Origin: a virus
Lineage: Duplodnaviria > Caudoviricetes
DNA: 64,000 bases
Direction: 5' to 3' (one strand)
IMG/VR virus record: IMGVR_UViG_3300020385_000012
Span: 1,351 to 65,350 of that record
Every line of letters begins with the position of its first letter. Position 1 is the first letter of the stretch. Shown here in pieces: positions 6,981-42,836 of this stretch. Both the position numbers and the translations under genes were made by a program. The notes below the pieces were generated by a model, which searched no databases, was not told where the DNA came from, and saw only the letters and a list, made by a program, of their open reading frames with translations.

Positions 6981-7234
6981 TCCACAAGTACAATATCCCC
7001 TAATTTTAAAACGTAATATAGTTTGTCATTTAATTCTATACCATGACCGGCCATTTTGTCGTAATGTACTATATCATTTTCATTAAGGTTTTCTACTAGA
7101 TTACCAGCAGATATAACTTTACCTTTTAAATACCTAACGTCTTTATTTTGATCTTCAGTAAGTTCTAAACCTCCAACTTTCTTTGGTGCTTCTTTTATTT
7201 TTTCTATGACTACGTAGTAATTAATTGCTTTCAT
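6977..7234 (-). CDS. groS: Co-chaperonin GroES (Cpn10)
   Basis: MKAINYYVVIE..GGL..GKVISAG..DIVHYDK..G..DIV; adjacent to GroEL. Confidence 0.85.
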   Translation of the reverse strand: MKAINYYVVIEKIKEAPKKVGGLELTEDQNKDVRYLKGKVISAGNLVENLNENDIVHYDKMAGHGIELNDKLYYVLKLGDIVLVE

Positions 7235-25984: not shown

Positions 25985-26132
25985 GAAAGAAGAACCATCA
26001 GGAACATGGAGTATGGCATTAGGAACATACCCAGGAGTACTATTTGGGGCTAGAACTTATGAAGGCCCAACACACACACAACACGTATTTTATCTACCCT
26101 TTGTGGATATAGCAATAGAAATAAAAAATTAA
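25977..26132 (+). CDS. Small protein (51 aa)
   Basis: Hand-translated MDEKEEPSGTWSMALGTYPGVLFGARTY..YLPFVDI; ends 2 nt before nrdB. Confidence 0.6.
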   Translation: MDEKEEPSGTWSMALGTYPGVLFGARTYEGPTHTQHVFYLPFVDIAIEIKN

Positions 26133-26134
26133 TT

Positions 26135-27127
26135 ATGAAAGCACCATTATTTACAGAAAGAATTCCGTACAAACCATTTGAATATCCTGAGTATTACACA
26201 GAGGGTTGGTTAAAACAAGCTCAGGCCTTTTGGCTACATACTGAAATTCCTATGTCCGGTGATTTAAAAGATTGGAACGAAAAACTAAATGACAAAGAGA
26301 AGAACTTGGTCGGAAACATACTACTCGGCTTCGCCCAGACAGAGTGTGCAGTCTCCGACTATTGGACGCAAAATGTTGTCTCGTGGTTTCCTAAGCACGA
26401 GATTCAACAAATGGCAATGATGTTTGGTAGTCAAGAGACTATCCACGCCGTTGCATACAGCTACTTGAATGAAACTTTAGGTCTTGAAGACTATGAAGCA
26501 TTCTTGCATGAACCAGCTACAGCAAAAAGATTTGAAAATCTAGTTGCTTATGAAGGTAACGATCCCGTAGGTATTGGTAAAAGTCTTGCAGTATTTTCTG
26601 CATTTGCTGAAGGTGTATCTTTATATTCTGCATTCGCTGTGCTATACAGTTTTCAAATGCGTAATATGCTTAAAGGTATAGGTCAACAAATGAAGTGGTC
26701 TGTAAGAGATGAATCATTACACAGTAAAATGGGATGCCAGTTATTTAGACATATGTGTTCACAAATACCAGGTCTAAAACAAGAGTGCGAGCCACATATA
26801 TATTTGGCCGCTTTAGAAATGCACAATGCTGAAATGTCTTATATAAATAAGATGTTTGAGATGGGTGATATAGAAAATTTAACAGCTTATGACTTACAAC
26901 ACTTCATCAAAAAAAGAGTTGGCGACAAACTTGAAGAGCTCGGCTACACTGAAAGAAAATACAAGCAGTGGGACTGGACAGAAAAATCGTATGACCAAAA
27001 ATCAATTGACAAAATGGCTTGGTTCGATCATCTTACTGGGGGTCACACTCACACTGATTTCTTCGCTATTAGGCCGACTGACTATAGTAAAGCAAACGAA
27101 GGAGAAGATTTTGAAGACGTTTGGTAA
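26135..27127 (+). CDS. nrdB: Ribonucleotide reductase class I beta subunit
   Basis: FW...E, ETIHAVAYS, FAEGVSLYSAF, RDESLH diiron motifs. Confidence 0.95.
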   Translation: MKAPLFTERIPYKPFEYPEYYTEGWLKQAQAFWLHTEIPMSGDLKDWNEKLNDKEKNLVGNILLGFAQTECAVSDYWTQNVVSWFPKHEIQQMAMMFGSQETIHAVAYSYLNETLGLEDYEAFLHEPATAKRFENLVAYEGNDPVGIGKSLAVFSAFAEGVSLYSAFAVLYSFQMRNMLKGIGQQMKWSVRDESLHSKMGCQLFRHMCSQIPGLKQECEPHIYLAALEMHNAEMSYINKMFEMGDIENLTAYDLQHFIKKRVGDKLEELGYTERKYKQWDWTEKSYDQKSIDKMAWFDHLTGGHTHTDFFAIRPTDYSKANEGEDFEDVW

Positions 27128-27137
27128 AAATTAAATT

Positions 27138-27341
27138 ATGGGAGTACAAAAAAACATTAAACAATTGCAAGAGCAAGTGGGAATTTTAAGTGGTGCTTTA
27201 ACTAATGCATTAAAAGAATTAGATGCTTTAAAAGTATTGTCTCAAGGGACATTAACAGCATTTCAATTACATATTGGTAAAGACGACTGGGACAAACTTG
27301 TTGAAGAACTTAAAGATTTAGATAAAAGAGATGTGGAATAA
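27138..27341 (+). CDS. Hypothetical protein between nrdB and nrdA
   Basis: 67-aa ORF, coiled-coil-like. Confidence 0.65.
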   Translation: MGVQKNIKQLQEQVGILSGALTNALKELDALKVLSQGTLTAFQLHIGKDDWDKLVEELKDLDKRDVE

Positions 27342-29052
27342 AGAATGGAAAAAAGGTGTAGACTACCCTTCGTGGGGTGACACAGATGTATATAAGAAAA
27401 CAATTGGTGGTGGTTATTTAATTAAAAATGAAACACCAAGAGATGCATACAATAGAGTTTGTGAAACTGTAGCGAAGCGTTTAGGACGCCCAGAAATGGC
27501 CAAAACATTTTTTGAATATATATGGAATGGTTGGCTATGTTTAGCTTCCCCTGTGTTGTCTAATACAGGCTCAGATCGAGGTTTGCCAATATCATGCTTT
27601 GGTATAGATGTTGCTGACTCAATATATGACATTGGAAACAAAAATTTAGAGATGATGTTACTCGCTAAGCACGGCGGTGGAGTTGGCATTGGTATAAATC
27701 AAATTAGACCCGCCGGCGATAAAATTACAGGAAATGGAACATCTGATGGAGTTGTGCCTTTTTGTAAGATATACGATTCAACTATACTCGCCACAAATCA
27801 AGGATCTGTCCGAAGAGGAGCTGCAAGCGTTAATATTAATATTGACCACCCCGATTTTGAAGAGTGGTTGGAAATACGAGAACCTAAAGGAGACGTTAAC
27901 CGTCAATCGCTCAACCTCCACCAGTGTGCTGTGGTCGGCGACAAGTTTATGCGAAGACTTGATGCGGGCGATAAAAATGCGAGGAGGTTATGGGGAAAGT
28001 TACTTCAGAAACGTAAAGCAACTGGAGAACCTTATATCTTATTTAAGGGAAATACAAACAAAAATAATCCAGAGCAATACAGAAAGCACGGATTAAAAGT
28101 ACATATGACAAATATATGCAGTGAAATTACATTGCATACTGATGAATCACATTCATTTGTTTGTTGTTTATCATCGTTAAACTTAGCTAAGTACGATGAA
28201 TGGAAAAACACCAATCTAATATACGATAGTATATGGTTTTTAGATGGTGTCTTAGAAGAATTTATACAAAAGTCAAAAGGTAAAGTTGGATTTCATAATT
28301 CAGTAAGATCTGCTGAAAAAGGTAGAGCTTTAGGATTAGGAGTGCTTGGATGGCATACATACTTACAAGAACAAGGTTTACCATTTGAAGGTTTATTAGC
28401 ACAATATGAAACAAGAAAAATATTTTCACAAATTAAAATTGAAAGCGAAAGAGCTTCCATGGCACTTGCAGAGGAGTTTGGTGAACCTCTATGGTGTAGG
28501 GGTTCAGGTTTTAGGAATACTCATCTCCGTGCCATTGCTCCTACTGTTAGCAATAGTAAACTTAGTGGCAATGTTAGTCCCGGTATCGAACCCTGGGCCG
28601 CTAATGTATTTACGGAACAAAGCGCTAAAGGTACTTTCATTCGCAAGAACCCTACATTATTAAAGCTATTAAAAAAGCATAAAATTAATACCGAAAAAGT
28701 TTGGTTAAAAATTATGAAAGATGGGGGGTCAGTTCAAGGCGTTAAAGAACTTAATGATATAACTATAGGTAAATGGGATACATCAGCGAAAGAAGTATTT
28801 AAAACATTTAAAGAAATTAATCAACTGGAATTAGTTAATCAAGCGGGTATAAGACAACAATATATAGATCAGTCTGTTAGTTTGAATTTAGCTTTTCCTA
28901 GTGTTGCAGATCCTAAGTGGATTAATAAAGTTCATTATGAAGCGTGGAAGAAAGGTATTAAAACCTTATATTATATGAGGACGGAATCTGTATTGAGAGG
29001 TGATATTGCGCAAGCAGCAATGGACGAGAATTGTTTAGCTTGTGATGGATAA
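27331..29052 (+). CDS. nrdA: Ribonucleotide reductase class I alpha subunit (no ATP cone)
   Basis: ISCF, GGGVG, TNICSEI, CCLSSLNL, AIAPT, DQSVSLN, TLYY, C-terminal CLACDG. Confidence 0.95.
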   Translation: MWNKEWKKGVDYPSWGDTDVYKKTIGGGYLIKNETPRDAYNRVCETVAKRLGRPEMAKTFFEYIWNGWLCLASPVLSNTGSDRGLPISCFGIDVADSIYDIGNKNLEMMLLAKHGGGVGIGINQIRPAGDKITGNGTSDGVVPFCKIYDSTILATNQGSVRRGAASVNINIDHPDFEEWLEIREPKGDVNRQSLNLHQCAVVGDKFMRRLDAGDKNARRLWGKLLQKRKATGEPYILFKGNTNKNNPEQYRKHGLKVHMTNICSEITLHTDESHSFVCCLSSLNLAKYDEWKNTNLIYDSIWFLDGVLEEFIQKSKGKVGFHNSVRSAEKGRALGLGVLGWHTYLQEQGLPFEGLLAQYETRKIFSQIKIESERASMALAEEFGEPLWCRGSGFRNTHLRAIAPTVSNSKLSGNVSPGIEPWAANVFTEQSAKGTFIRKNPTLLKLLKKHKINTEKVWLKIMKDGGSVQGVKELNDITIGKWDTSAKEVFKTFKEINQLELVNQAGIRQQYIDQSVSLNLAFPSVADPKWINKVHYEAWKKGIKTLYYMRTESVLRGDIAQAAMDENCLACDG

Positions 29053-29106
29053 AATTTGGAAGAAGCGCGCGTGAGGAAATGAGTGGTTGGTGGGATCCAA
29101 ATAATT

Positions 29107-29132
29107 AAGGGGGATTAATTTCCCCCTTTTTT
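29107..29132. terminator. Terminator hairpin at the convergence of the two arms
   Basis: AAGGGGGA-TTAATT-TCCCCCTT followed by a T-run, between nrdA and the convergent ORF. Confidence 0.75.
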
Positions 29133-29780
29133 CATTATTACTTTTGTTGAATTAACAATATCTCTACCCGACTTATTGTTATTATAATTATTAATATCTT
29201 GCCTAGGTGTTATTTTAGATTCAAATCTATTTGGATTTTCTTTTGGCTCAACTCTTGTGTTGTTATTCCAGTTTCTAGAAACATTATTAGGATTCCTGTA
29301 AATTCTTTCTTCTCTATTATCTACTTTCTTTCTTAATCTATTAGCTATAACATCTACATTTGGTGTTCCTCTTCTTTCCTTCATTATAGCTCTCTGTCTC
29401 CATATTTTATATGAATTATATTGCCAAGGGGTATACCATTGATATGCTCCCCAGTTATTATAAGTTAAAGCCCATTCATACCAAAACTGACTTCTGTTCC
29501 AGTAAGCGTCGATAGGACTTAATGGTTTCCAAAACCTATAAACAAATGATGAAGTATAAAACGAATAAGGTTGCTTCATCGCAAACTGTGCATAATCCCA
29601 CCTAAATCTAAAATCAGTTCTCATCTTCCAATTTAATCTTGAAAAAGATAAGGTATCTATTTTTACAGTATTAGGAACTTCTAATACTACAAATTTAGTA
29701 GGCTTATGATTAATAGTGGATAATTGAACAGACCCACATCCTGTTAGTATTAATAATAAAATTAAAATGTAATTTTTCAT
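29115..29780 (-). CDS. Putative lipoprotein
   Basis: MKNYILILLLILTG-C lipobox; Trp/Tyr-rich middle; Arg/Asn-rich tail. Confidence 0.7.
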   Translation of the reverse strand: MKNYILILLLILTGCGSVQLSTINHKPTKFVVLEVPNTVKIDTLSFSRLNWKMRTDFRFRWDYAQFAMKQPYSFYTSSFVYRFWKPLSPIDAYWNRSQFWYEWALTYNNWGAYQWYTPWQYNSYKIWRQRAIMKERRGTPNVDVIANRLRKKVDNREERIYRNPNNVSRNWNNNTRVEPKENPNRFESKITPRQDINNYNNNKSGRDIVNSTKVIMKKGGN

Positions 29781-29862
29781 TTTTTCATGTGTTTAGTTAA
29801 ATTTGGATAAAGCTCTATGACAAAGTCATGTACTTTATTTATAAACTCAATTATGATTTTTT

Positions 29863-30321
29863 TCATATAACCATATATTTAGTTTTGTTGTTCTCGTCTT
29901 TGTATGCTTTCAAACATCTTTTTCTATTTGAATCAGCATCTACATAACTTACATGCACCCAATCTGGGTTTTGATCGGTGCCAAATTCCCAAATCATTTG
30001 ATCGTAATCTAAGTTATCTTTTATGTATTTATACATATCTGCGTTTGACATATAGCCATATGTGTCGTCTAAATCCATTGCTCTGCCTTGGCAATGCTGT
30101 GATTTTGCACTCCCACCAATCGCTTGATTTAATTCTGGGCTGCGATAAAATGAGTTAATTTTAATCGGCCCATTAACGTGTTTTCTTAATGGTTCAAATA
30201 CTTTCTCAGCAATCAATTCCATATTTTGTAATTCATAATCACCGGGTGTATTATCTATACCTGTTCTCATTGCCGTTGCACTAAACGTTGCTTCTTTTTT
30301 ACTAATGTGTTCGCTAATCAT
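29863..30321 (-). CDS. Endolysin, peptidase M15 family
   Basis: INSFYRS..SQHCQGRAMD..WVHVS zinc motifs. Confidence 0.9.
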   Translation of the reverse strand: MISEHISKKEATFSATAMRTGIDNTPGDYELQNMELIAEKVFEPLRKHVNGPIKINSFYRSPELNQAIGGSAKSQHCQGRAMDLDDTYGYMSNADMYKYIKDNLDYDQMIWEFGTDQNPDWVHVSYVDADSNRKRCLKAYKDENNKTKYMVI

Positions 30322-30324
30322 TTT

Positions 30325-31776
30325 TTATAATTTAAATTTACCGCCTATTGTTATTGAATATGTTAATGGAAATGAGTCTGTGCTTTTAGCCACATTAAAA
30401 CCTAAATTCATTCTAAAGGTTTTAGTCATAGAAAAATCAAAGTTAGCACCACCCACGAATAAAGCGTGCTCATTAAAAACAAATCCATTATCTAATGTAC
30501 TGTAACTCACTGGTGTTAATGCGGTAGCTAACATAGGTGATACAGTAAATCTTTTAAAGTTATATGGTTTGGTACCAAAAAATACAAATGAAGGCATTAT
30601 GTTCCAATTTCCTTGGCTATATAATATATTGTTTGATGCAGATACTCCACCAACAAATCCTTTCCATTTATTTTCTTTTTGGCCTATATAAACGTTGCTA
30701 ATACCAAATGACATATTATAAACGCCATACATATACATTAATCCAGCTGATAATGTTTGCACATTAGCAATACTCCCTTTGTCATAAAAATGGCCAAATA
30801 CATATTCTTCACCATTCTCTCTAATTATAACTGGAACTTTTTTATCGTATCTATGAAATACATGACCTCTTGAACCACTTAAACTAAATTGTTTTAAGTT
30901 GTCCCATATCATCATATTAGCGGAATAATTAAATTCACCGTTCATAGATGATTGTGCAAAGCCAATACCTATAACCTGATTTGCAGCACCATCTAATCCT
31001 GACATTCGCATTAGATTAGCAGATATAATTATAGGGTTTGTATTTTTCTTTTTCTTTTTTTTCTTTTCTTCTTCCTCCTCTTCTTCTTCAGACTCTTCCT
31101 CGGATTCTTCTTCCTCCTCTTCTTCTTCTTCTTCTTTATCCTCTTCCTCTTCTTCTTTTTCTTCCTCTTCTTTTTCCTCTTCTTGTTCATCTTCAGAGTC
31201 ATCACTATCATCATCGGAATCGTCGCTATCATCAGAATCATCAGAATCATCTCCATCTCCATCAGAATCATCTCCTCCGTCGTCTCCATCACCTCCATCA
31301 TCACTATCTCCTCCACCGTCATCACCGTCTGAATCTCCACCACCATCTCCATCGCTATCCCCTCCTCCGTCAGAATCACCGCCAGAGTCACCACCGCTAT
31401 CGCCAGTGTCTCCACCGCTATCTCCTCCAGAATCAGATCCACTTCCTGAATTGTCAGAGCCACTTCCGCTTGAATCAGAGCTATTGGTATTTGATGTAGA
31501 TGTTTGTGTTGTTGTTTGTGTGGTTTGGGCTGTAGAACACGCTGATAACGCATACCACCAGGCATACGTTTGTTCCATCCAAGTTCTTAAAGCACCACTG
31601 TAAAAATCATTTGCAGTAAATGTTTTTGTTCTGTTATAAAAAGATACTGTTGTGTATCCTTCCATTTGAATTGAAACTTTTTTAATCTCTCCGGTACATC
31701 TATCCGCAAAGGCTTGTACTAATGTTTGAGAATATATACTTGAGGAAAATAATAATAATATTATTATTTTTTTCAT
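30325..31776 (-). CDS. Secreted protein with long low-complexity linker and probable C-terminal outer-membrane beta-barrel
   Basis: Sec signal peptide; GGDSD/poly-E/poly-K linker; alternating hydrophobic strands ending YSITIGGKFKL. Confidence 0.65.
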   Translation of the reverse strand: MKKIIILLLFSSSIYSQTLVQAFADRCTGEIKKVSIQMEGYTTVSFYNRTKTFTANDFYSGALRTWMEQTYAWWYALSACSTAQTTQTTTQTSTSNTNSSDSSGSGSDNSGSGSDSGGDSGGDTGDSGGDSGGDSDGGGDSDGDGGGDSDGDDGGGDSDDGGDGDDGGDDSDGDGDDSDDSDDSDDSDDDSDDSEDEQEEEKEEEEKEEEEEDKEEEEEEEEEESEEESEEEEEEEEKKKKKKKNTNPIIISANLMRMSGLDGAANQVIGIGFAQSSMNGEFNYSANMMIWDNLKQFSLSGSRGHVFHRYDKKVPVIIRENGEEYVFGHFYDKGSIANVQTLSAGLMYMYGVYNMSFGISNVYIGQKENKWKGFVGGVSASNNILYSQGNWNIMPSFVFFGTKPYNFKRFTVSPMLATALTPVSYSTLDNGFVFNEHALFVGGANFDFSMTKTFRMNLGFNVAKSTDSFPLTYSITIGGKFKL

Positions 31777-32495
31777 TAATGATCAAATATTTTTTTTCTT
31801 ATCATTCGTTTAACAACCTTAGCAACTGCAGTTTCTAAAGCTTTCTTAGTCGATGTACCAATTGATGATTGATTAAACTTAACATCTTCTAAATTCTCAT
31901 TATTTAATAAAGTTAATTCTCTTGTTGTTGTAGCTTTACCTAAGCCAGATCCCGTCATATATAAACCAGTTTCAGAATCAATAAGCTTAACTTGTAATCC
32001 TAATCTTGTAACTAATTTATTTTTAATACCGTCTTTTAAATTAATAGTTTCATCTTCTGATATACTAAAGTCATAAACTTCTATATAACAAAAGTATTTA
32101 GCTAAAACTATTTTACCAATAGGATTTATAACGTTAGCTGTAAAACCTTTTTCACTTGCTTTGAATTGTTTAATCATTCTATCTTTTATCTCATCTCTTG
32201 TTTCTACAAACTCAAAACGAAACGTTTCATCTAAGAATGCTACAGTTATATTAGTTAAACCTAATCCAACTCTATAATCACCTAGTTCAGGATACTGATT
32301 TAATATTTCTTCAGTAACACCAATGTTAAGCAATGCTACAGATACAGGGTCACCGTTATATTCTGGTACACTCCATATAGATTCTCTTGACTCAAAGCTA
32401 CCGACATAATCTTCGGTTGTTGTTTTTCCAATTACTTGGCTATGAACAGAAGCCACAGCCGATACAAATATCGCACATAGTATAAATTTTTTCAT
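31776..32495 (-). CDS. CsgG/TolB-N-like secreted protein
   Basis: Signal peptide; GLTNITVAFLDETFRFEFVE..VYDFSI..LGLQVKLIDSETG..GSGLG..KKALETAV pattern. Confidence 0.65.
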   Translation of the reverse strand: MKKFILCAIFVSAVASVHSQVIGKTTTEDYVGSFESRESIWSVPEYNGDPVSVALLNIGVTEEILNQYPELGDYRVGLGLTNITVAFLDETFRFEFVETRDEIKDRMIKQFKASEKGFTANVINPIGKIVLAKYFCYIEVYDFSISEDETINLKDGIKNKLVTRLGLQVKLIDSETGLYMTGSGLGKATTTRELTLLNNENLEDVKFNQSSIGTSTKKALETAVAKVVKRMIRKKIFDH

Positions 32496-32496
32496 G

Positions 32497-32727
32497 TTAC
32501 CAATCTATTTCTCTTTCCTCTTTCTTTGGTTTTTGTATAACTGTTTTAGTTATAACCAAAGTATCTTTTACAACACTCGGAGGTATTGTTATTGTTTGTT
32601 CCATTGTTGGTGGAGGGGAATCATCTTCAGGACTGAATATAGCTTCCATGTTAGCTATAAATATTCCACCAGCTGCAGTTATAATTAAACCTACTGTAGC
32701 TATTATTTGATTTTTTAATTCTTTCAT
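32497..32727 (-). CDS. Small single-TM protein
   Basis: IIATVGLIITAAGGIFI TM segment, Pro-rich tail. Confidence 0.65.
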   Translation of the reverse strand: MKELKNQIIATVGLIITAAGGIFIANMEAIFSPEDDSPPPTMEQTITIPPSVVKDTLVITKTVIQKPKKEEREIDW

Positions 32728-32728
32728 A

Positions 32729-33088
32729 TTATTTCATTGAAAAGGTTTGTCGACCTATAAATTGATTATTTTTAGTATACAGCTCCACGGTATATGAACT
32801 AACTGGCAATGAATTAACATATATATTTAATATGTTATCGCCTTCTCTGCCTTTTATTATTTCTTGATTAATTATAGTATTTGTAAAATCTAATATTTTA
32901 ATCCTATAGTCACCATCAGAGGGTAGCTTAGTGTTTATTCTCACTTTGTCTTGCACTATATAGCTTTCAAGTTTTAAACCAACAGCTTGAGGCATGAATA
33001 AAGATTCAGGCACTTCTTGTATCGGTCTTTCATTGTATACCTCTGTGGTGCAACTTATAAATAAAAATAGTATAAAAAGTTTTTTCAT
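32729..33088 (-). CDS. Lipoprotein with T9SS C-terminal-domain-like Ig fold
   Basis: LFIS-C lipobox; YRIKILD..IYVNSLPVSSYTVEL..GRQTFSMK resembles a T9SS type A sorting domain. Confidence 0.55.
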   Translation of the reverse strand: MKKLFILFLFISCTTEVYNERPIQEVPESLFMPQAVGLKLESYIVQDKVRINTKLPSDGDYRIKILDFTNTIINQEIIKGREGDNILNIYVNSLPVSSYTVELYTKNNQFIGRQTFSMK

Positions 33089-34713
33089 TATTGTATTTTT
33101 AAAATTACTTTAGTTCCATCGCTTGTAACAGCATCCGTTGTTTTAAAATAAATTAATCCTGATGCGTTTGTCACGGTTTGTTTTGTATTAAATATAATTT
33201 TATAAGGTTTACCAACCTTAATGCTTTCTTGGTTTTCTACACTAATGCTACCAAAATATAATTTATTATCGCGTTCTGTTGCAAAATTAGTTAATAGATT
33301 ACCTGTATCGAATTGAACCTCTTCAAATTCTAATATAGTATCGTCAAACTGAATTACAAATTGCATGCCCGCTAAATAATTTTTTTCGAGTTCAACTAAT
33401 AATTCCACTTTATCGTTAACTAAACTTGTTGAAATATCTAAATCTAAATTTTCAATTTTACCCTGTACAATAGGCATTCTTACAACGCCCTCGTTATTGT
33501 TTCTAGCTATAGGTTCAAATGAATGTGAGAAGTCTACGTCTCCAATAAGTCCGTGACCAAAATCAAAAACCTTATTAGAATCAGTAGGTGTAAAATGTTT
33601 TTTTTGTCCAAAGTAATAATCATCTGTAGCATATCCGTATTGTGTTTTTTCTCCCCAAATATCTTTAGCGCCGTTAGTAGAGCTGGTAAAATATTCACTA
33701 ACATTTTTATCCATTATGTGACTAAGTATAACATAAGAATCATCAAAGTCTACATTACCGCTATTATTAACTTCACCTAATAAAGATTGTAGCGCATGGG
33801 TAAACGTACTTGCCGAACCACTTGGGCTAGAACCAGCGCCGATAGCCTCTTTAAATACTAAAAACACATCAGTAACAGTAACCACATCATCTAACCAATC
33901 AGAAGCCAGTTCATTATCAACAGTAATGTTAATATTGTATTTAACATCGTTTTCTAAGCCAGTTACAATAGCTTGAGAATTAGCATCAAAGTTGCCACTC
34001 ACTACACTATTATTATTACTTAATATATCGTATTTATAATGCGTCGGTTTGTCGTTCTCTGTTTTAAGATTTATAGTAACACTTCCGGCGTCGCCACCTT
34101 CAACATCTGATAATGTTATTTTTTGTTGCATTGCATCAACGTCGTATTTTGTTGATGTTGAATTATCTTCAGCCCTCATCCAGTTAAGATGAGTTACATT
34201 ATTATAATTGCTGTAGTTAGTATTAATCTTATCTTTAATTTTAAAATCAACTTCAATTAAAGTATTATTATATGTTATGCCTACACCATCTTGAATTGTT
34301 ATCCTTTCTACTGACCAATCGTTATTTGTAGGATACGAATTAGTATCTCCTTGTACTTGCGTTCTATTAAACCAACCGTGTAAATACTGATCTGAAAGAT
34401 TATCTTCATCATAAGTACTTAAAACTTTATACTTATAACCGTCCCAATGTGTTAACGACGTTTGCGCATCGGTATTAGCTGAGTTATCGGTTACTTTAAA
34501 TCTATGAGTAATTTTTTGTAACAATTTGTTATTGTACTCATAGTCAAATATATACAAGTTAGGGTCAACATTATTTGTGACTTGTATTGTATTAAACTTT
34601 ATTGTTATAGTATCACCAACTGCAAAATTTTCGGCGTTTGTATAACTGTGATCAAGTTTTAAATCTTGCGATAAACAGAATAATGGTAATAATAAAAACA
34701 ATAGTTTTCTCAT
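33088..34713 (-). CDS. Secreted protein with cohesin-like and dockerin-like domains
   Basis: Signal peptide; VGDTITIKF..FDYEYNNKLLQ; DDVVTVTDVFLV and GEVNNSGNVDFDDSYVIL dockerin-like repeats; LAGMQFVIQFDDTILEF cohesin-like. Confidence 0.6.
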   Translation of the reverse strand: MRKLLFLLLPLFCLSQDLKLDHSYTNAENFAVGDTITIKFNTIQVTNNVDPNLYIFDYEYNNKLLQKITHRFKVTDNSANTDAQTSLTHWDGYKYKVLSTYDEDNLSDQYLHGWFNRTQVQGDTNSYPTNNDWSVERITIQDGVGITYNNTLIEVDFKIKDKINTNYSNYNNVTHLNWMRAEDNSTSTKYDVDAMQQKITLSDVEGGDAGSVTINLKTENDKPTHYKYDILSNNNSVVSGNFDANSQAIVTGLENDVKYNINITVDNELASDWLDDVVTVTDVFLVFKEAIGAGSSPSGSASTFTHALQSLLGEVNNSGNVDFDDSYVILSHIMDKNVSEYFTSSTNGAKDIWGEKTQYGYATDDYYFGQKKHFTPTDSNKVFDFGHGLIGDVDFSHSFEPIARNNNEGVVRMPIVQGKIENLDLDISTSLVNDKVELLVELEKNYLAGMQFVIQFDDTILEFEEVQFDTGNLLTNFATERDNKLYFGSISVENQESIKVGKPYKIIFNTKQTVTNASGLIYFKTTDAVTSDGTKVILKIQ

Positions 34714-35174
34714 AGTTTTAATTTCTTAATAATGTTTTCAGATAATTTTTTTAATGCAACGCTTACACTATTTTGTGTAAACTTCCCTTGTTCATTTAAT
34801 AAAATTAAAGATGTAGTTATATCTTTTGACGTGCCTTTCACTTTTACTTTTTTCTTTTTGTATTTAGCAATAGCAATTATTTCGGTTTGACTCGATGATT
34901 TGCTATACAATGCAATATTTGATTGAGTACGTTTCACATCAAAATAAATTAGCTCAACATCTAAAACATTTTTACTTCTATCATTTAAGCTATAATCTTG
35001 ATCCTGAACCACCTCCTCTAATATGTTTTTCAACCCAAACCCAACGTTTCTATTGCCAACCAAAGGACCAGTTTGAATTGAATTTTTTATATCGTTTATT
35101 TTAATATCTTGTGCAGATATTACAATGCAAAATAATAAACTACTTACTATCTTTATTCCTTTTATGTACTTCAT
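34710..35174 (-). CDS. Secreted protein, short CsgG-like
   Basis: Signal peptide; FGLKNILEEVVQD..VELIYFD..SVALKK, parallel to 31776..32495. Confidence 0.5.
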   Translation of the reverse strand: MKYIKGIKIVSSLLFCIVISAQDIKINDIKNSIQTGPLVGNRNVGFGLKNILEEVVQDQDYSLNDRSKNVLDVELIYFDVKRTQSNIALYSKSSSQTEIIAIAKYKKKKVKVKGTSKDITTSLILLNEQGKFTQNSVSVALKKLSENIIKKLKL

Positions 35175-35304
35175 ACCATCTTTGAACAGTAAAGCCTATT
35201 GAAACTAATAATAATATTATTTTAAGTATATCTTCAACCGAAGTCATTGAAACTGTAAATGCTGATGTGTTCAATGCTAACACTTTTAAATCTTGAGTAT
35301 CCAT
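35140..35304 (-). CDS. Small membrane protein, possible holin (54 aa)
   Basis: Hand-translated MDTQDLKVLALNTSAFTVSMTSVEDILKIILLLVSIGFTVQRWY... Confidence 0.6.
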   Translation of the reverse strand: MDTQDLKVLALNTSAFTVSMTSVEDILKIILLLVSIGFTVQRWYEVHKRNKDSK

Positions 35305-35305
35305 T

Positions 35306-35581
35306 TTATTTTCTTCTTTTAACTGATTTGACCCTTCTTGGTTTTCCTTTTGGTTGTCCTAAGCTTTTCTTTTCTCTGATTTTTTTTGCTTTTTCAGATG
35401 AAGACATTTCGCCCGATGTTTTTGGTGTTTTACTTGATACTCTTTTGCTTGGTCTGCAATACGGCACGCCTCTGCCGTCGCCTTTTTTACGACCACAGGC
35501 TTTTCCTGTTCTAACGTCAACCCATTTTTCTTTGAACCAACGCTTGAGCGCAGCACCTTTTTTAGTTTTTCTTACTGCCAT
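35306..35581 (-). CDS. Small highly basic protein
   Basis: LKRWFKEKWVDV..CG..PYCRPSKRVSSKTPKT. Confidence 0.7.
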   Translation of the reverse strand: MAVRKTKKGAALKRWFKEKWVDVRTGKACGRKKGDGRGVPYCRPSKRVSSKTPKTSGEMSSSEKAKKIREKKSLGQPKGKPRRVKSVKRRK

Positions 35582-35700
35582 TATTTAGGTTTTTTATGAC
35601 CGCAGCCTTTTTTCTTTAAAGCTAAGTGTTCTTTATATGTTTTTGCCATAAACGGTTTGCCTTTGCAATACATTTTATGTGCTTTGAATTTTTCAGCCAT
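35581..35700 (-). CDS. Basic microprotein (39 aa)
   Basis: Hand-translated MAEKFKAHKMYCKGKPFMAKTYKEHLALKKKGCGHKKPK; TAATG coupling on both sides. Confidence 0.6.
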   Translation of the reverse strand: MAEKFKAHKMYCKGKPFMAKTYKEHLALKKKGCGHKKPK

Positions 35701-35816
35701 TATTTTTTATTTTTACCTTTGTTTTTTCTACATTTAGCTATAGCTCCACTCGCATATGCGGATGGGAATACTTTATATTGTCTTTTTACTTTATAGTAAC
35801 ACGCATCTTTTGGCAT
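35700..35816 (-). CDS. Basic microprotein (38 aa)
   Basis: Hand-translated MPKDACYYKVKRQYKVFPSAYASGAIAKCRK... Confidence 0.65.
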   Translation of the reverse strand: MPKDACYYKVKRQYKVFPSAYASGAIAKCRKNKGKNKK

Positions 35817-35818
35817 AA

Positions 35819-38800
35819 TTAATAAATTTTTATTTTTTTAGTTGACTTTCGTTTTTTCTTTTTAGGTTGTTTCCATTCTAATTCCCACTTAGCCCAACCT
35901 AAAGCATTAGCTACTCTCATCCAATCTTCATTTTCAGAGTCTAAAGCATCTTTTATATTTGTTATTTTTTTAATTCCTCTGTCAAGTGGTATATTCGTGC
36001 TCGCACTAACTAAATTACCTAAAGCTAAAGCAGCAGGATTATCTATAGCAAAACCTTTTTCTTTTATTTCTTTTTTATTCCATTGAAAAGTTCTATTTGC
36101 TGACACAACTTTTTTAATTTTAGATGAAATTGGAGGAGATAAATTCAATAATTCAATAGCAGTATCTTGAGGGCTACCTTTATCCGCCATTTTTATTATA
36201 ACATTTTTAAGTGTAGATATTGCTGCTCCATGAAAACCAATACCCCTTAATAATGAATCCGCCATACCGTTTGCAATTCTAGCACTTTTATTTTTTAAAA
36301 GCTCATCATCAGGATCATTACCAAACATCATGGCAAATAAAGCTTGCTGTAATGCGTTAAACATAATATTTTGTACAACACCATAATACATTATCTTAGA
36401 CATATTGGTTTTATCATCCCCACGTCTATTTATAAGATCACTAGCAGCTTTTTGCATTATTCTAGCATATTGTGATGGTGTGTTTGCAAAAGCTAATATA
36501 ACGCGCCCTAATTCGCTGGCTTGTTGTTGGCTAATTCTATCAGGTCTGCTTGATTGCTGAGACTCTTCAGATATTTCTCTAAAATCCAAAAAAGCTTTTT
36601 GCTCAGCTTCAGTTTTTGACATACCATCTTTGATATATGAATTAATTCTATTTCTATAAAAAGCAGCCCCCCCAGAGGATATTGCAAAACTATCCGCTAT
36701 TTGTGTTGGTAAAAATCCTAATTTTAATATTTTAGCAACAAAAGCTTTTGCTTTATTATTAGATTCAGCTGCAATTTCAGCAATATCGGCTTCATTAACA
36801 TTAATTTTTAACCCGTTACGTCTAGTTACTAAGTAATCAGAATTCATTAAAAACATTACGTCTTTCCAATATTGAGGTTGATTAGCAAATGCCGCAGCTG
36901 CTTTCAACGGATTATTATCATTCCAATTTAAATAATTCACTGCAGATATTGTTTGAAGAACAGCTGATCTTGAGTTAAAAAACATTATTGTTCCTACTGA
37001 GCCGTTTATCCAATCAACAAGTCTATTTGTTAAAGCGTCACCACCTTTGGATTTTCTGTTAGTTCCAGTTTTCATACGTTCGAGCATGTTTTCTAAAGCT
37101 AACCTATATTTTTTACCAAAAGCAGCCTCTAATTTATTTAAATTTGTTTCAGAAAATATTATATCAACATTTTGTTGCCATTTTTCTAAAGCTTGCTTTC
37201 TAGAGTCCGTGTTTAACCCTTGTAATAAATCTGTATTTATATTGCCAGCTAACCAATTTTTGTCCGGTTTTATGTATCCATCTTCATTTATTGTCATTAA
37301 ATCGTTAGCAAAATTTCTTAAAGAATTATCTTTAGCAACAAATTTATTTAATTCTTTTTTATCAATTTGAGATAATCCATCAATTTCAAAACCGCTTTGT
37401 GTCCATATATAAACTCTAATTGCTTGATCAACAGTAAAAGGTTCTCCAGGAACTTTTTCATTTAAATCTTTAGGCGATAATTTAGATAATTTTGTAATTT
37501 CATTATATTTATCAGCCATTTTTACCCTAGTGTTAGATATATCAACCATTGCTTGGGCATAAAGATCTGTTATATTTTTTTCAATCCATTTTATTTGTCT
37601 ATCTCCTTCTTTTCCTTTTCCAATAAATTTATACATTAACCCCATAAAATCCTGTGCTGATGGAGGTATACCTATTATATCAAATTTGCCTTTGTCCTTA
37701 CCAGCAACAGTAGCTTTAGCTCTAGCATATCTTTTTCTTGATTCAATTTTTGTAGAATTTTCTAAAATATCATTAAACTCAACATTTAAATCTATACTTT
37801 CACTAGGCTTTATATTTGTAAACACCTCCGCAGTTTGCGGTCCAGCTTTTATTGTTTTAGGTTTTACAACAGCATCATTGTTGCCAAAAAATAAATAAGC
37901 TCTTATATTAAATTTTGTTTTTGTATTATTTTCTCGGGTTTGATCAGTTAAAGAAATTTTTATAACAGTGTCTAAACCAAAATTGTAAATATCTTTTACT
38001 TTTAATTTTAGAGGATTTGTTCCTAATGACACCCACCCTTTGTCACCAAAGTACATGTATTGGTCCCCTTTACTTTTATATAATTTAACTATTGGAGCCA
38101 CCGTTGGTAATGTTTTTGTAGCTGTTCTACTAATAAGTTTACTTAACCATTCGCTCATTTTTAATGGCTCTTTATTTATATCTTTTTCTGTTGGATGAAA
38201 TTTATCTGTAATTACAAATCCATCTGAATCTAACTCATATGGCAGGTTTGCTTCGTCTAATTTTTGAATTATTCTATTGGTTATTTTATTAGCCTCCGCA
38301 AACATTTCATTTGCTATTTCTGGACCAAATTCATTTAGTATATTTTTTTTACCATTTTTAGACCCTATTTTGTCACTAATAGAATTTTTAATTTCAAAAC
38401 CGTATTTTTGTCCATTGAGTTCAATGTCTATATCAACGCCTGTGTCTCCTGTTTTTAGCGCTTTTAAGTCAGACATATTAAGAATTTTAATTCCCGGTAT
38501 CAAAGCTTCTAACTCTTTCGCTACAAAATACTCTAATGCTTGCCCTTTTCTATCCTTTAAATTTAAACCATATTGTACTTGCCCAGCAATTAAAGCGGTC
38601 CAAAATACATTAAAATTTTCTTCTAAACTAATACCGTCTAAAGAATTAACAAGATCTATAATTAAACTAGCAGATTCAGAAAATTTAAAATCTGTAGCTC
38701 TATCAATTTCTTTTGCAACTTGTGATAAGTAATTGTCATCAAACTGCTCCCCTTGCATTTCAACAATGCTTTGTATTTTATTTTGTATTTCTGGATCTCT

Positions 38801-41800
38801 TATAACGTCTAATGTAGCATCAAAAGCAATTTCTTCAGCTAATGCTTCCGCTAATGCTGTTTTTCTTGTTCCTTGCGTAGACCTACCAACATCTTCACCT
38901 AAAAAATAATCTACAAATTCTTTATTTTTTATTTTCTTTTTTCTAAATATAGGATTTCCTTGAGCAGTTTTTTCTCTTTTTTGTTTTCCATTCTCATCTA
39001 AAACCGGCTCTACAAAAGGTTTAAATCTTTTATTTAATGTAGACTGAGGTATTATACTATATAATAAATCAAAATTAACTTGCAAAAATTGCTTATAATC
39101 AACACCTCTTCCTAAAAATTTAGCTATTGTAGGTTTTAATTCTGTTCTAAATGCTTTTTGTAATTTTTTTCTAAAATCTTTTGATTTAACAGATGGTAAT
39201 TTTGTACCAAAAGTTTTAATAACAGAATTTTTAACTTTATTTACAATGCTTTCTGTTAATCCTAAAGATGTCCTAAGACTTTCTCTTTGATCAAGTATTT
39301 CAGGATTGGTAACATCATCAGTAACGCTTTTTGCTTCTGAAACGTCTTCTGTAAATTTAGTTTCAAACATCTGAGATGCTATTGTTTTACTTTTTTGTTT
39401 TAATCTAAAAAGTATATGTGAAGCTAAAACAGGGTTTCTTTTGGCATCATATTGTCTTAAAGAGCCAAGTATTCCATACACTGGGTCTGAAACAAGAGCC
39501 ATTTCAAAATCTTCTTTCATTTCTGAAAACTTAGGAACATCTCTATATTTATTTACAATTTTTTTAATTTCTTGTTTTATATATTTATTATCAGCAATCG
39601 ACATTATTGCATTTTCACCTTTATTTTCAAACATTGTCTGTATTGCTTGAGAATCAGAGGCTGCAACTTTTAATTCTGGTTCAGCTTGAACTTTTTTATC
39701 TGCTTCAATAATTAAATCGCTTAAACCAGCTTTTAATTTTACTAAATCGGTTTTATCTAAAGTTCCATCTTTTATTCTTTGGCCAAAGTTTATAAGTAAA
39801 TTTACAGCATCGGTTTGACCTTTAAAATTAATTTTAGTACCCGCGACTAAATTCATGCTTTCCGCAATTGAACCTAAAAATGTTTTATTTTTAATATTGT
39901 CGGGTTTAATTTTGCCCTCCGCTACTCTTTCTAAAAAGTTAACAACTATTTCTTCAGCATTAGTAATATCTGCCGACTGAGCACCTTTTACTCGCTTCCC
40001 TTTAAATTCAACACCAAACATTTGGTCATAAACTTTTTTATTGTTTACTTTTAACCATTTTTCTATTTGTTCAGCTATTGGTTTATATTCATCGCTTTTT
40101 ATTCCTAAGGATTCAAACAATGCGTTATGTGAAATTTCATGATACCCTGTACCCGCTCTTTCATTTTTAACAGCATTTTCTTTAGATATTAATTCATAAG
40201 ACTTGCCTTTTAATTTAAATTGAATCCCGTTTGTTATACCTTTTCTAAATTTGTTTATAGTGTTTTGGTCAATATTTGCTCCAATTTTTGTTACGTAATC
40301 TAATAGTTGATCATTAGTTTGAAATGACTTAAATTCGTTATTAAGCCCTTTTATTTTTTTACTAGATGCCACCGATTCGTCAAACTTATCTTCAAAATAC
40401 AATTCAGAAGCCTTTTGAAAAACTTTTGTTTCTGATGTATTAGTATTGTAAAATTCAAAAGAATCTTTAGCTTTTTGTATATAACTATTGTATTTTTTAT
40501 TATCCGAAGCTTTTAGTAAACTAAATTCATTGCCAAAAGATTCTTCGCTTCTAAATAAATCTCTAACTTCTTGTAAATTATTAAAATCGCTTTGCAATAT
40601 ATTTAACGCTAATTTTTTTTGTTTGTTAGTTAGCTTGTTATCGTTTAGTATTTCCGAAGCTTTAGATCTTAATGTTTCTTGTTTGGATGTTATATCCATG
40701 TAGCCCTGAAAAGCTTCTTTAGATATTTTTTCGTTTATTTTGTTACTAATATTTGATAATATACTTTCGTTTGCTTCTCTTAATGTTTTAACCTGCTGTT
40801 CAAAGCTTTTAAAAGTAGATGAATTAGTGTTTAAATTCGCCATACTTTGTTCTATCTCACTAATTTTATCATTATTAGCTCGAAACTCTTTATATTTATC
40901 TACGTCGCCAAATTTTTGCATAAACATTCCTGCGGTTGCAGGAGCAGAATTCATTAAAACTGCAAACATAGCGCCAGAAAAAGCAGAGTGATCTACGTTT
41001 TCAAAAGTAGGCCTTCCTGTTAAAATGTTTTGTGTCATAGTAGTTAAAGACTCACCACCAGATTCAATAAAAACTGGTGCGGCAATTTGTTGACCGAAAT
41101 AGCCTTTCATACTTCTTTCAACAACAGATTTACCTGATTTTGACAGAGCGTTAAAAGTGTTTCTTAAAAGCAAATAACTAGGAGCAACACCAAACAAACC
41201 TTCTGCCATACCATAACCAGATGAAATAAGCATTTTTTCCCCAACGCTACGACTAGACATAGGATCTAAAGCGTCTTGTTTTGTCATAGTGGCGTATTGT
41301 TCTCCCGCGCTTGGTAAACTTGCTGCTACTCCTGCGGCTATTGTTTGTCCCGCAGCTCCAGCGCCTGCAAAACTAGCAAGACCACCAGATGCCGCCATAG
41401 ATGCAAATATAGGTAATTGAGTTGATATTTCTTGCCCTAAAAATCTACCGAAGTTTCCATCTTTGAAAGCATCTTTAAATTTTATATTAGGAGAATATTT
41501 ATTCATTGTTCCGTCTACATAATTACCCCAAGCAAGATCAACTTCATCTAAAGCCTTTAAGGTTTTTTCTTTCTGCTCTTCATCGTCTTCAAAAAGTATA
41601 GTAGAAATTCTTGTAGCGTTATTTAAACCATATACAACAGCACTACCTAGCCCAGTACCAATTTTAGCTAAATGTTTATTAAAATGATCATAATCTTTAC
41701 TTAATAAATCAGCACTAATAGCCATTTCTTGCATATCGGCACCTTGTGTTTTTAAATAAGGAAGCTTGCTTAATATAGCCTCTTCTTTTAATTTATATTC

Positions 41801-42832: not shown

Positions 42833-42836
42833 ATAA

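Follow-up and report, generated by a model that had tools for sequence, protein, structure and literature searches.

What could a phage gain from placing six exported proteins in the envelope of a cell that it is going to lyse? The question is raised by IMG/VR record IMGVR_UViG_3300020385_000012 (Duplodnaviria; Caudoviricetes), which is 65,350 bp long and complete by CheckV. Its bases 1351–65350, i.e., the stretch of 64,000 nucleotides hereafter called the window, were analyzed. On the minus strand of the window, six tightly packed genes (30325–35174), designated here p154, p541, lipo119, tm76, p239, and acid483 and collectively called the cassette, lie between a holin-like open reading frame (ORF), hol54, and the gene of an M15 peptidase. 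The ORF coordinates bear out this arrangement, initially noted in a preliminary description of the DNA made from its sequence. The reading favored here, albeit tentatively, is that the cassette encodes a late-expressed module for anchoring or display at the outer membrane of the infected cell.

Flavobacteriia rank among the chief degraders of the carbon of algal blooms, and, to our knowledge, the handling of the outer envelope of Bacteroidota by their phages is poorly known. An outer-membrane display or export device, if the cassette is one, would represent a novel means by which a virus remodels the surface of its host, possibly with a secretion signal supplied in trans; if the cassette acts in lysis, it would be a novel solution to the problem of the outer membrane at this stage in Bacteroidota. 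The find gains weight from the abundance of p239 (5398 relatives in a metagenome protein collection at E up to 0.001) and from the fact that the cassette crosses phage lineages. Since Flavobacterium phage immuto, its only cultured carrier, is in culture together with its Flavobacterium host, the question is directly testable.

Exported Products, Gene Order, and Spread of the Cassette

The host of the phage is very probably a member of Flavobacteriia, because the relatives of the window's portal protein (phrog_6547, 3.4e-151) are those of flavobacterial phages. This protein is 42–52% identical to its counterparts in the Flavobacterium “elemo” podophages, Maribacter phage Panino, Cellulophaga phages, and an uncultured freshwater podovirus. 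Apart from the portal, the window codes for virion proteins, a GroEL-type chaperonin, and ribonucleotide reductase.

All six products of the cassette carry an N-terminal hydrophobic segment or a lipobox, as had been supposed from the ORF translations. A single N-terminal hydrophobic segment is present in each of p154, p541, p239, and acid483 as well as in lipo221, a lipoprotein encoded beyond the M15 peptidase gene. The segment comprises residues 7–31 in tm76 and 18–42 in hol54, and the M15 peptidase has none. In lipo119, a short hydrophobic stretch is followed by the lipobox Cys, which is invariant in the 17 aligned orthologues and present in all 34 copies. The residue directly after the hydrophobic segment is an invariant Gln in p154 (Q22), p239, and acid483 and a near-invariant one in p541. 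This conservation fits the Bacteroidetes Q-rule, i.e., the occurrence of Gln after a type I signal peptide (described in the accessible part of PMC5837995), and hence export in a Bacteroidota host.

When p239 was used as the query against IMG/VR, relatives at 70–99% identity were retrieved from 35 loci. With the gene order unchanged, BLAST detected p154 homologues in 32 of these loci, p541 and lipo119 homologues in 33 each, tm76 homologues in 23, and acid483 homologues in 34. The misses mostly fall at contig ends (L027, L029, L036) or concern divergent small genes. In L024, L028, and L033, where BLAST missed tm76, the corresponding place is occupied by a gene whose product has the tm76-type build. 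The lowest identities were 23% for p541, 29% for acid483 and tm76, 30% for lipo119, and 42% for p154, with p239 being by far the most conserved member. The co-occurrence of the genes elsewhere, which the preliminary description had left to a synteny search, is therefore evident from an order kept in 35 loci. None of the 120 listed metagenome relatives of p239 had a Pfam domain or a name other than “hypothetical protein”. Between tm76 and p239, some loci (L012:7756-7998, L035:7792-7989, L027:3231-3425) encode an additional small membrane protein, not present in the window, whose C-terminal motif is conserved.

The carriers of the cassette do not form one lineage. A homologue of the window portal was found in only one of the five tested cassette-bearing records and is missing from two complete ones, of 114 kb and 191 kb. 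Among 50,697 deposited phage records, neither the DNA of the region nor p541 had a match, and a p239 homologue was encoded in only four, all of them isolates of immuto. This cultured 160-kb myovirus has a variant of the cassette that encodes, in this order, a cohesin protein (gp015), a small protein (gp016), the p239 homologue (gp017), an acid483-like protein (gp018), and a p154-like protein (gp019), with a lectin gene adjoining the cohesin gene; the homologues of p239, acid483, and p154 and the small anchored protein are annotated as hypothetical. One more distant phage locus, L037, was found via a p239 relative. The profile hidden Markov models (HMMs) of lipo119, p541, and the barrel of acid483 missed the counterparts in L037 and immuto; the lone p541 match was to the nuclease of immuto and extended over no more than 33 positions at its N-terminus. 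Pattern scans of 185,579 species genomes, based on the p239 alignment and on a distant relative (P0130), yielded no confirmed locus, such scans needing near-exact short peptides. Overall, the sequence comparisons indicate that the cassette is accessory, horizontally mobile, and present in several phage lineages, since the window portal is shared by only one of the five records tested and a variant of the cassette occurs in immuto.

Predicted Outer-Membrane Barrel of acid483 and the Favored Reading

The N-terminal domain of acid483, of ~65 residues and with C27 and C80 invariant in the alignment, is followed by a low-complexity linker of ~160 residues rich in Ser, Thr, Asp, Glu, and Lys, and then by a conserved C-terminal domain of ~235 residues, the last of which is Phe or Leu. 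The model of residues 244–483 is all-beta (predicted local distance difference test, pLDDT, 88.7; predicted template modeling score, pTM, 0.75). In the VIA structural comparison, it was closest to the translocator of NalP (Z 21.3, root-mean-square deviation 2.6, 199 aligned residues), followed by KdgM (20.5), EstA (19.9), NanC (19.3), FapF (19.2), and EspP (18.7), and the same set of barrels was returned by Foldseek. The model thus identifies the C-terminus of acid483 as a predicted 12-stranded outer-membrane barrel in terms of class, not family, because the scores for these six proteins lie close together. A probable barrel at this end had been called by eye, and the model supports the call. 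No meaningful sequence match of the barrel domain was found in Pfam or PDB, and PorP/SprF (PF11751) was listed for none of the 18 scanned barrel domains at E up to 1. The ESM Atlas, taken as a source of leads only, pointed to unnamed Bacteroidota clusters.

Two ideas on the linker were discarded. Its action as an Asp/Ser/Glu-rich chelator of outer-membrane cations is at odds with the linkers of the orthologues, which are Lys/Glu-mixed or Ala/Pro/Thr-rich, and its action as a ruler spanning the periplasm with their length, which ranges from ~40 to ~330 residues.

The genes of p239 and acid483 are adjacent in every locus where both were detected, including L037 and immuto, where the order otherwise differs. 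The predicted complex of p239 (residues 20–239) and the N-domain of acid483 (17–86) scored 0.09 against a mark of 0.32, a value that speaks neither for nor against binding.

Judging by the predicted features, the six products would be distributed among different layers of the host envelope. The small protein tm76 would be anchored in the inner membrane with its Pro-rich tail in the periplasm, and the two-Cys N-domain of acid483 would hang from the barrel on the long low-complexity tether. p239 and acid483 may operate as a pair, the former constituting a periplasmic ring or plug under the barrel in the manner of PelC–PelB or LptE–LptD. lipo119 would hold p541 at the outer membrane, as suggested by the presence of both kinds of domain in one protein of a distant phage. 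Together, the products would equip the infected cell, around the time at which it lyses, with a new complex for anchoring or display. Such a complex would serve to alter the surface of the cell, e.g., by adhesion or by masking that keeps the progeny or superinfecting phages from binding to the cell or its debris. Such surface alteration is considered the most likely purpose of the cassette, which is not thought to be a curli-type pore or a spanin.

The preference for surface display stems from the content of the cassette and its variants: a lectin, a cohesin, a dockerin-like stretch, a domain resembling a sorting signal, and a barrel with a tethered head. The cassette is regarded as an add-on to the lysis genes because nine loci possess separate spanin candidates, related cultured flavobacterial phages lack the cassette, and the immuto-like group carries it away from lysis genes.

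Several observations weigh against surface display. No curated family is matched by the window copies of p239, p541, or acid483, and the p154 and lipo119 copies stay under the Pfam cut-offs; all of these copies were assigned by way of their orthologues, of profiles, and of predicted structures. A direct role in lysis would also be compatible with the tight and repeated interleaving of the cassette with the genes of holins and endolysins. Surface display accounts neither for the recurrence of a secreted nuclease and ribonucleotide reductase nearby nor for the far greater conservation of p239 in comparison with its neighbors. The HMM of the lipo119 family did not detect the sorting domain of L037, so the view of lipo119 as a split-off sorting domain (see below) is based on shared Pfam matches and position rather than on direct homology. 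Finally, the window lipo119 (CTTEVYNE) has a single acidic residue in the stretch after its Cys, which makes the surface exposure of this copy uncertain.

Position among Lysis Genes

The placement of the cassette in a lysis region, as initially reported, is real and recurrent. In the window, the M15 peptidase matches Pfam Peptidase_M15_3 (1.7e-15) and phrog_894 “endolysin” (1.1e-29), so that it can be confidently predicted to be the endolysin. hol54 is called holin-like on the grounds of its size, its single hydrophobic segment followed by a charged tail, its position, and its weak PHROG matches (phrog_26666, 6.3e-4; phrog_1350, a holin, 0.085); its homologue was found by tblastn just upstream of p154 in 16 of the 35 loci. 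Holin-like or wall-acting genes adjoin the cassette in 31 of the loci, and a wall hydrolase was identified in 24, representing four unrelated families. These are M15 peptidases located 3–12 nt downstream of the cassette (13 loci), Amidase_2 proteins encoded within 600 nt (five loci) or inside the cassette (L027), GH19 enzymes with a peptidoglycan-binding domain 6–18 nt downstream (four loci), and a DUF5675 protein 308 nt downstream (one locus). In seven loci, the cassette is directly followed by a two-segment holin-like gene and the gene of a ~200-residue protein, and four loci have no lysis neighbor, with ribonucleotide reductase being encoded upstream and thioredoxin downstream. It is unlikely that the adjacency to holin-like genes and to four families of wall hydrolases arose by chance, and its recurrence in different lineages argues for co-expression with lysis.

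The most serious alternative, unlikely as it appears on balance, is a direct participation of the cassette in lysis: its products would breach or loosen the outer membrane of the Bacteroidota host after the action of the endolysin, independently of spanins, or would set the timing of lysis. Besides the recurrence described above, this alternative draws on the location of the cassette between the holin-like gene and the endolysin gene not only in the window but also in L025 and L033, on the endolysin gene within the cassette of L027, and on two complete genomes in which the neighboring Amidase_2 is the only one. In addition, a spanin pair of the classical kind was not evident in the lysis region of the window, and the adjacent genes of a lipoprotein (lipo119) and an inner-membrane-anchored protein (tm76) are reminiscent of the genes of spanin subunits. 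However, in nine related loci the endolysin gene is immediately followed by the gene of a separate secreted protein (with homologues identified by tblastn), which is a spanin-like candidate. In the four loci mentioned, as well as in immuto and L037, the cassette resides by ribonucleotide reductase or nuclease genes, and no lysis gene was found in the stretch examined. As only the immuto records among the deposited phages encode a p239 homologue, the portal-related flavobacterial phages live without the cassette. Furthermore, the tail of tm76 is short, Pro-rich, and, as read from the sequence, devoid of coiled-coil character; the variable linker of acid483 leaves no fixed periplasmic ruler; and lectin, cohesin, and sorting-domain content is unexpected for a membrane-disrupting device. 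The spanin-independent lysis contemplated in the preliminary description has thus become less plausible.

A composite of the display and lysis readings is also rather improbable. It envisages a self-contained trans-envelope machine, timed to lysis, in which p239 would form a ring under the autotransporter-like barrel and lipo119 would sort p541 to the surface in trans, either sparing the progeny from debris or opening the outer membrane without spanins.

Five of the proteins encoded after the endolysin (L017:11033-11455, L024:11887-12315, L035:11540-11983, L025:10851-11321, L033:10857-11327) are secreted, comprise 140–156 residues, and look coiled-coil-like by eye. Those of L017, L024, and L035 have a membrane-anchor end, and those of L025 and L033 have a beta-rich stretch ending in Phe. 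Such proteins may be spanin candidates, perhaps of a spanin-like type not described so far in flavobacterial phages.

Another protein, of 199–211 residues, occupies the position of the endolysin after the holin-like gene (L013:8161-8760, L020:10408-11007, and the same site in L014–L016, L021, and L022). It had no PDB sequence match, and its homologues (46–55% identity) in crAss-like and other Bacteroides phages are mostly annotated as “hypothetical”; it may represent a new endolysin family.

A secreted NUC-type nuclease is encoded inside the cassette of L037 (L037:6836-7420), as gp012 next to the cassette of immuto, and 2.6–4.7 kb downstream of the cassette in L013–L016, L022, and L027. Its frequent company with ribonucleotide reductase may hint at the scavenging of nucleotides or the degradation of incoming DNA in the periplasm.

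CsgG-Fold Proteins and the Possibility of a Channel

The relationship of p239 to CsgG emerges from its wider family. The window copy matches no Pfam family at E up to 1, CsgG (PF03783) included, and nothing in NCBIfam (a scan of eight proteins of the region against the latter gave low-complexity noise only); the profile of the close family had no match among PDB sequences. A profile search of 1.84 billion representatives returned 261 proteins at E up to 0.001. In a wider alignment of 36 sequences (31 of the 261 plus five copies from the window and the loci), 20 match Pfam CsgG (best 1.9e-17) and seven match LpoB, and the profile of this wider family retrieved E. coli CsgG from PDB (3x2r_D, E 0.0027). 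By sequence, p239 would, thus, belong to the wider CsgG superfamily only transitively.

The AlphaFold2 model of p239 (pLDDT 84.8, pTM 0.78) gave a more direct answer. The first Foldseek match was CsgG (4uv2_P, E 1.2e-7, TM-scores 0.46/0.50), followed by PelC (5t0z_D, 3.2e-7). In VIA, the top eight entries were all CsgG (Z 12.1–10.8; the best with a root-mean-square deviation of 4.9 over 167 aligned residues), below which came PelC (9.6), FlgT and the LPHT ring (9.0–9.3), PelBC 9h80 (9.2), LptE (~8), and TraT (6.9). Among models of viral proteins, the best match (E 6.5e-8) bears the name CsgG and comes from a phage, and the ESM Atlas, again for leads only, pointed to CsgG/LpoB clusters (0.93–0.94). 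The predicted fold of p239 is, therefore, that of CsgG, given that the wider-family profile, Foldseek, VIA, and the viral models all converge on it.

p154 appears to be a shortened relative of p239: hhalign aligned it with the p239 family (85.9% probability, E 5.2e-6, 118 columns), the helical middle being missing. Pfam Lipoprotein_16 of the YajG type (PF03923) is matched by 14 of the 17 p154 orthologues (best 4.3e-6), and the window copy (21.8 bits) is under the 25-bit cut-off. Two proteins of the region had been described as CsgG/TolB-N-like; the evidence in favor of this is the fold in the case of p239 and the hhalign alignment in the case of p154.

These findings invite the idea, quite doubtful in our estimate, that p239 is a true oligomeric outer-membrane channel of the CsgG type, serving secretion or uptake, with the barrel of acid483 as a second channel; in one version, nucleotides released by the nuclease would be taken up. 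The idea is in line with the CsgG entries heading the structural matches, with the name of the best viral match, and with a long beta-hairpin (residues 134–173) predicted in the model. It also accords with the likeness of the acid483 barrel to the porins KdgM and NanC and to the amyloid exporter FapF, as well as with the recurrence of a secreted nuclease and ribonucleotide reductase nearby. An uptake or lysis role has been speculated for phage CsgG and CsgF in the part of the literature source available (PMC9004378). However, none of the 16 aligned phage copies of p239 has a lipobox Cys at the cleavage site, unlike many distant relatives, which have a Gly-Cys lipobox. The hairpin bears the invariant residues S144, S146, E147, D148, and E149, and such an acidic motif is unexpected for a hairpin facing membrane lipids; the second hairpin region is modeled with low confidence (pLDDT about 68). 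No Pfam match to the curli partner families (CsgA, B, E, F) was obtained for any of the ten proteins of the region, and the TM-scores to CsgG do not exceed 0.46–0.50. Besides, p239-type domains fused to by-eye kinase and membrane segments or to caspase-like segments suggest that such a domain can work as a soluble one outside the cytoplasm. The pore in the outer membrane earlier connected with the CsgG-like proteins is, accordingly to these features, doubtful.

The fusions just mentioned are longer proteins (P0178, P0187, P0223, P0213, P0232, P0229) in which the p239-type domain stands behind parts that by eye resemble a Ser/Thr kinase and a membrane segment or ahead of a part that by eye resembles a caspase. 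In cellular organisms, the p239-type domain may serve as an envelope sensor or anchor.

Cohesin Protein and Its Partner Lipoprotein

The largest product, p541, is most variable in its N-terminal half. The window copy had no match to Pfam Cohesin (PF00963) at E up to 1; the C-terminal 130 residues of 11 of the 17 orthologues do match this family (best 4.2e-8), and the p541 family profile retrieved scaffoldin cohesins from PDB with E from 0.0015 (3l8q_A) to 0.48. Upstream, the profile of residues 273–339 gave ten PDB matches, eight of which are dockerins (best 8ajy_B, 0.0028), with one alignment extending across both of the calcium-binding loop–helix segments typical of dockerins; Pfam Dockerin_1 (PF00404) was matched in this stretch by only one of 17 family members (0.075). 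The cohesin part of the “cohesin/dockerin-like” protein inferred from the ORF translation is, hence, supported by orthologues and profiles, and its dockerin part remains weak despite the dockerins among the PDB matches.

The lipoprotein lipo119 had been likened to the C-terminal sorting domain of cargo of the type IX secretion system (T9SS), a likeness which is borne out by its orthologues. In the window, DUF3244 (1.5e-4) and Por_Secre_tail (PF18962; 0.026, 15.2 bits against a cut-off of 27) are both below the Pfam cut-offs; among 17 orthologues, DUF3244 is matched by 15 and Por_Secre_tail, at E up to 1, by 11 (best 1.3e-7). The lipo119 profile gave chance-level ribosomal matches only among PDB sequences. 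In 15 of the 34 copies, acidic residues are found at positions +4 and +5 after the Cys, resembling the lipoprotein export signal of Bacteroidetes, given as C-X-K-(D/E)2 in the accessible part of PMC5080379.

The two proteins may be connected. In L037, where a separate gene of the lipo119 kind was not observed, the cohesin protein ends in a true Por_Secre_tail domain (34.8 bits, cut-off 27). The fusion of cohesin and sorting domain in a single protein hints that p541 and lipo119 may work together. In L030, a second cohesin protein of 636 residues with a C-type lectin (L030:4863-6773) and, after it, a second lipoprotein of 111 residues (L030:6773-7108) are inserted between p541 and lipo119, which suggests pairwise duplication of the cohesin-protein and lipoprotein genes.

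In Flavobacterium, phage resistance is frequently traced to genes for gliding and for the T9SS. The cassette might, accordingly, jam or hijack the T9SS of the host, with lipo119 blocking the export of receptors, i.e., as a means of superinfection exclusion, or sorting p541 in trans. The matches of the lipo119 orthologues to the sorting-domain family fit this view, as does the L037 protein, whose true sorting domain implies a T9SS-bearing host. Still, this is improbable: the window lipo119 falls far from the Por_Secre_tail cut-off, and lipo119, a lipoprotein on its own that starts with a signal peptide and a lipobox, does not form the extreme C-terminus of a cargo protein, which is the defining position of the sorting signal. 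Moreover, no role would be left for p239, p154, acid483, and tm76.

That the products are ordinary virion or assembly components is hardly credible: their genes do lie on the same strand as the structural gene block and downstream of it, but all six proteins carry a Sec-type signal, a lipobox, or a membrane anchor, none of them has a meaningful match to a PHROG virion family, and the cassette moves among lineages which do not share the window portal.

Comparison with Known Systems

Closest to the cassette among the systems described so far are the CsgG–CsgF genes of pelagimyophages (PMC7029224, in its accessible part) and of methylophage Melnitz, where an exported CsgG fold is likewise encoded by a marine phage without curli fiber subunits. 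The portion available of a second paper gives the function of these genes in pelagimyophages and Melnitz as unknown, with a link to lysis or uptake speculated (PMC9004378). The present case differs from these in the host, which belongs to Bacteroidota, not Pseudomonadota, and in p239 itself, which has no lipid anchor, fails to match Pfam CsgG on its own, and lacks a CsgF-type partner detectable by Pfam. Furthermore, p239 travels with a barrel, a cohesin, a lipoprotein resembling a sorting domain, and a small anchored protein.

The PelC–PelB and LptE–LptD pairs offer another parallel, as p239 belongs to the same fold class (Z of 9.6 for PelC and ~8 for LptE) and its gene always lies by a barrel gene. 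In contrast to these pairs, the barrel is 12-stranded and autotransporter- or KdgM-like, p239 is non-lipidated, and the cassette contains no polysaccharide or lipopolysaccharide genes. The order of parts in acid483, i.e., signal peptide, N-domain, linker, and a 12-stranded barrel at the extreme C-terminus, together with NalP as the best match, resembles that of type Va autotransporters. However, the would-be passenger comprises only ~65 residues, the linker is of low complexity, no autotransporter family is matched by sequence, and the KdgM/NanC porins and FapF are within about two Z units of NalP.

The likeness of p541 to cellulosomal cohesin–dockerin modules, apparent from the Cohesin matches of its orthologues and the dockerin matches upstream, is limited by the lack of enzymes and scaffoldin repeats and by the coexistence of the cohesin and the dockerin-like stretch in one protein. 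Unlike in T9SS cargo, the sorting-domain look-alike is a separate lipoprotein, fused only in L037. As to spanins, the similarity concerns the location in a lysis cassette and the adjoining genes of an outer-membrane lipoprotein and an inner-membrane-anchored protein; in contrast to the Rz/Rz1 and unimolecular types, tm76 has no coiled coil, six genes are involved rather than one or two, and separate spanin-like candidates exist in nine loci. Overall, CsgG proper, T9SS sorting signals, and spanins each have defining features for which the cassette was tested and which it lacks.

The preliminary description knew of no described phage system with this combination, and the literature searches agree. 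In the part available, a paper on North Sea flavophages describes endolysins and a few spanins, and not the cassette; a keyword search of a paper on Baltic Flavobacterium phages had no match. No description of the cassette was found in the literature on phage CsgG, immuto, flavobacterial phage lysis, and phage cohesin–dockerin, with paper supplements lying outside the search. As a system, the cassette matches nothing described, though each of its parts has a known fold.

Gene Layout and Neighboring Features

The cassette is located at the 3′ end of a minus-strand operon (Table 1) which also contains virion genes, the holin-like gene, and the endolysin gene. From hol54 to lipo221, the genes overlap by 1–35 nt or are separated by gaps of 1–3 nt, with the exception of 82 nt before lipo221. 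The extra lipoprotein noticed earlier after the endolysin is indeed encoded there, yet tblastn found its homologues in only three of the 35 loci (L003, L008, L034), and its PHROG match is weak. The terminator-like hairpin marks the junction of this operon and the converging plus-strand ribonucleotide reductase genes.

Table 1. Positions of the cassette members and other features in the window.
Feature	Positions	Strand	Description
hol54	35140-35304	-	54-aa holin-like small membrane protein; 35-nt overlap with the start of p154
p154	34710-35174	-	Predicted exported 154-aa protein; shortened CsgG/YajG-like domain
p541	33088-34713	-	Predicted exported 541-aa protein; variable beta-rich N-part, dockerin-like stretch 273-339, cohesin ~410-541
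lipo119	32729-33088	-	119-aa putative lipoprotein; T9SS-C-terminal-domain-like/DUF3244-like beta-sandwich
tm76	32497-32727	-	76 aa; predicted N-terminal membrane anchor, Pro-rich periplasmic tail, conserved C-terminus (...DW)
p239	31776-32495	-	Predicted exported, non-lipidated protein; CsgG/PelC fold
acid483	30325-31776	-	Signal peptide, two-Cys N-domain, linker, predicted C-terminal 12-stranded barrel 244-483
M15 peptidase (endolysin)	29863-30321	-	Neighbor of the cassette, not a member
lipo221	29115-29780	-	Putative lipoprotein 3′ of the endolysin, lipobox LTGC; not a conserved part of the cassette
Terminator-like bidirectional hairpin	29107-29128	.	8-bp stem with 5 G-C pairs; consensus match only
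DUF5872 protein	35306-35581	-	Small, very basic (1.6e-14); just upstream of hol54
Giant ORF	35819-42832	-	2337 aa; between virion genes and cassette; no Pfam match
GroEL-type chaperonin	7221-8783	-	Cpn60_TCP1, 1.6e-54
Tail-fiber-like protein	62208-63956	-	C-terminal Peptidase_S74 chaperone domain (7.5e-16)

A sigma-70 promoter scan returned 39 sites, against 38.4 expected from shuffled sequence. Metatranscriptome contigs from four runs of two studies span the whole of 26000–44000, including both operons; they may stem from DNA in the libraries, so transcription is not implied by them.

Among the other genes, that of the DUF5872 protein is kept in seven of the 35 loci. The product of the giant ORF is 38–58% identical in most related loci and 98% identical in the near-identical L034; possibly, this product is a virion protein that is located internally or is ejected. 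As regards the chaperonin, the freshwater relative MW202828 encodes GroEL together with a 10-kDa co-chaperonin.

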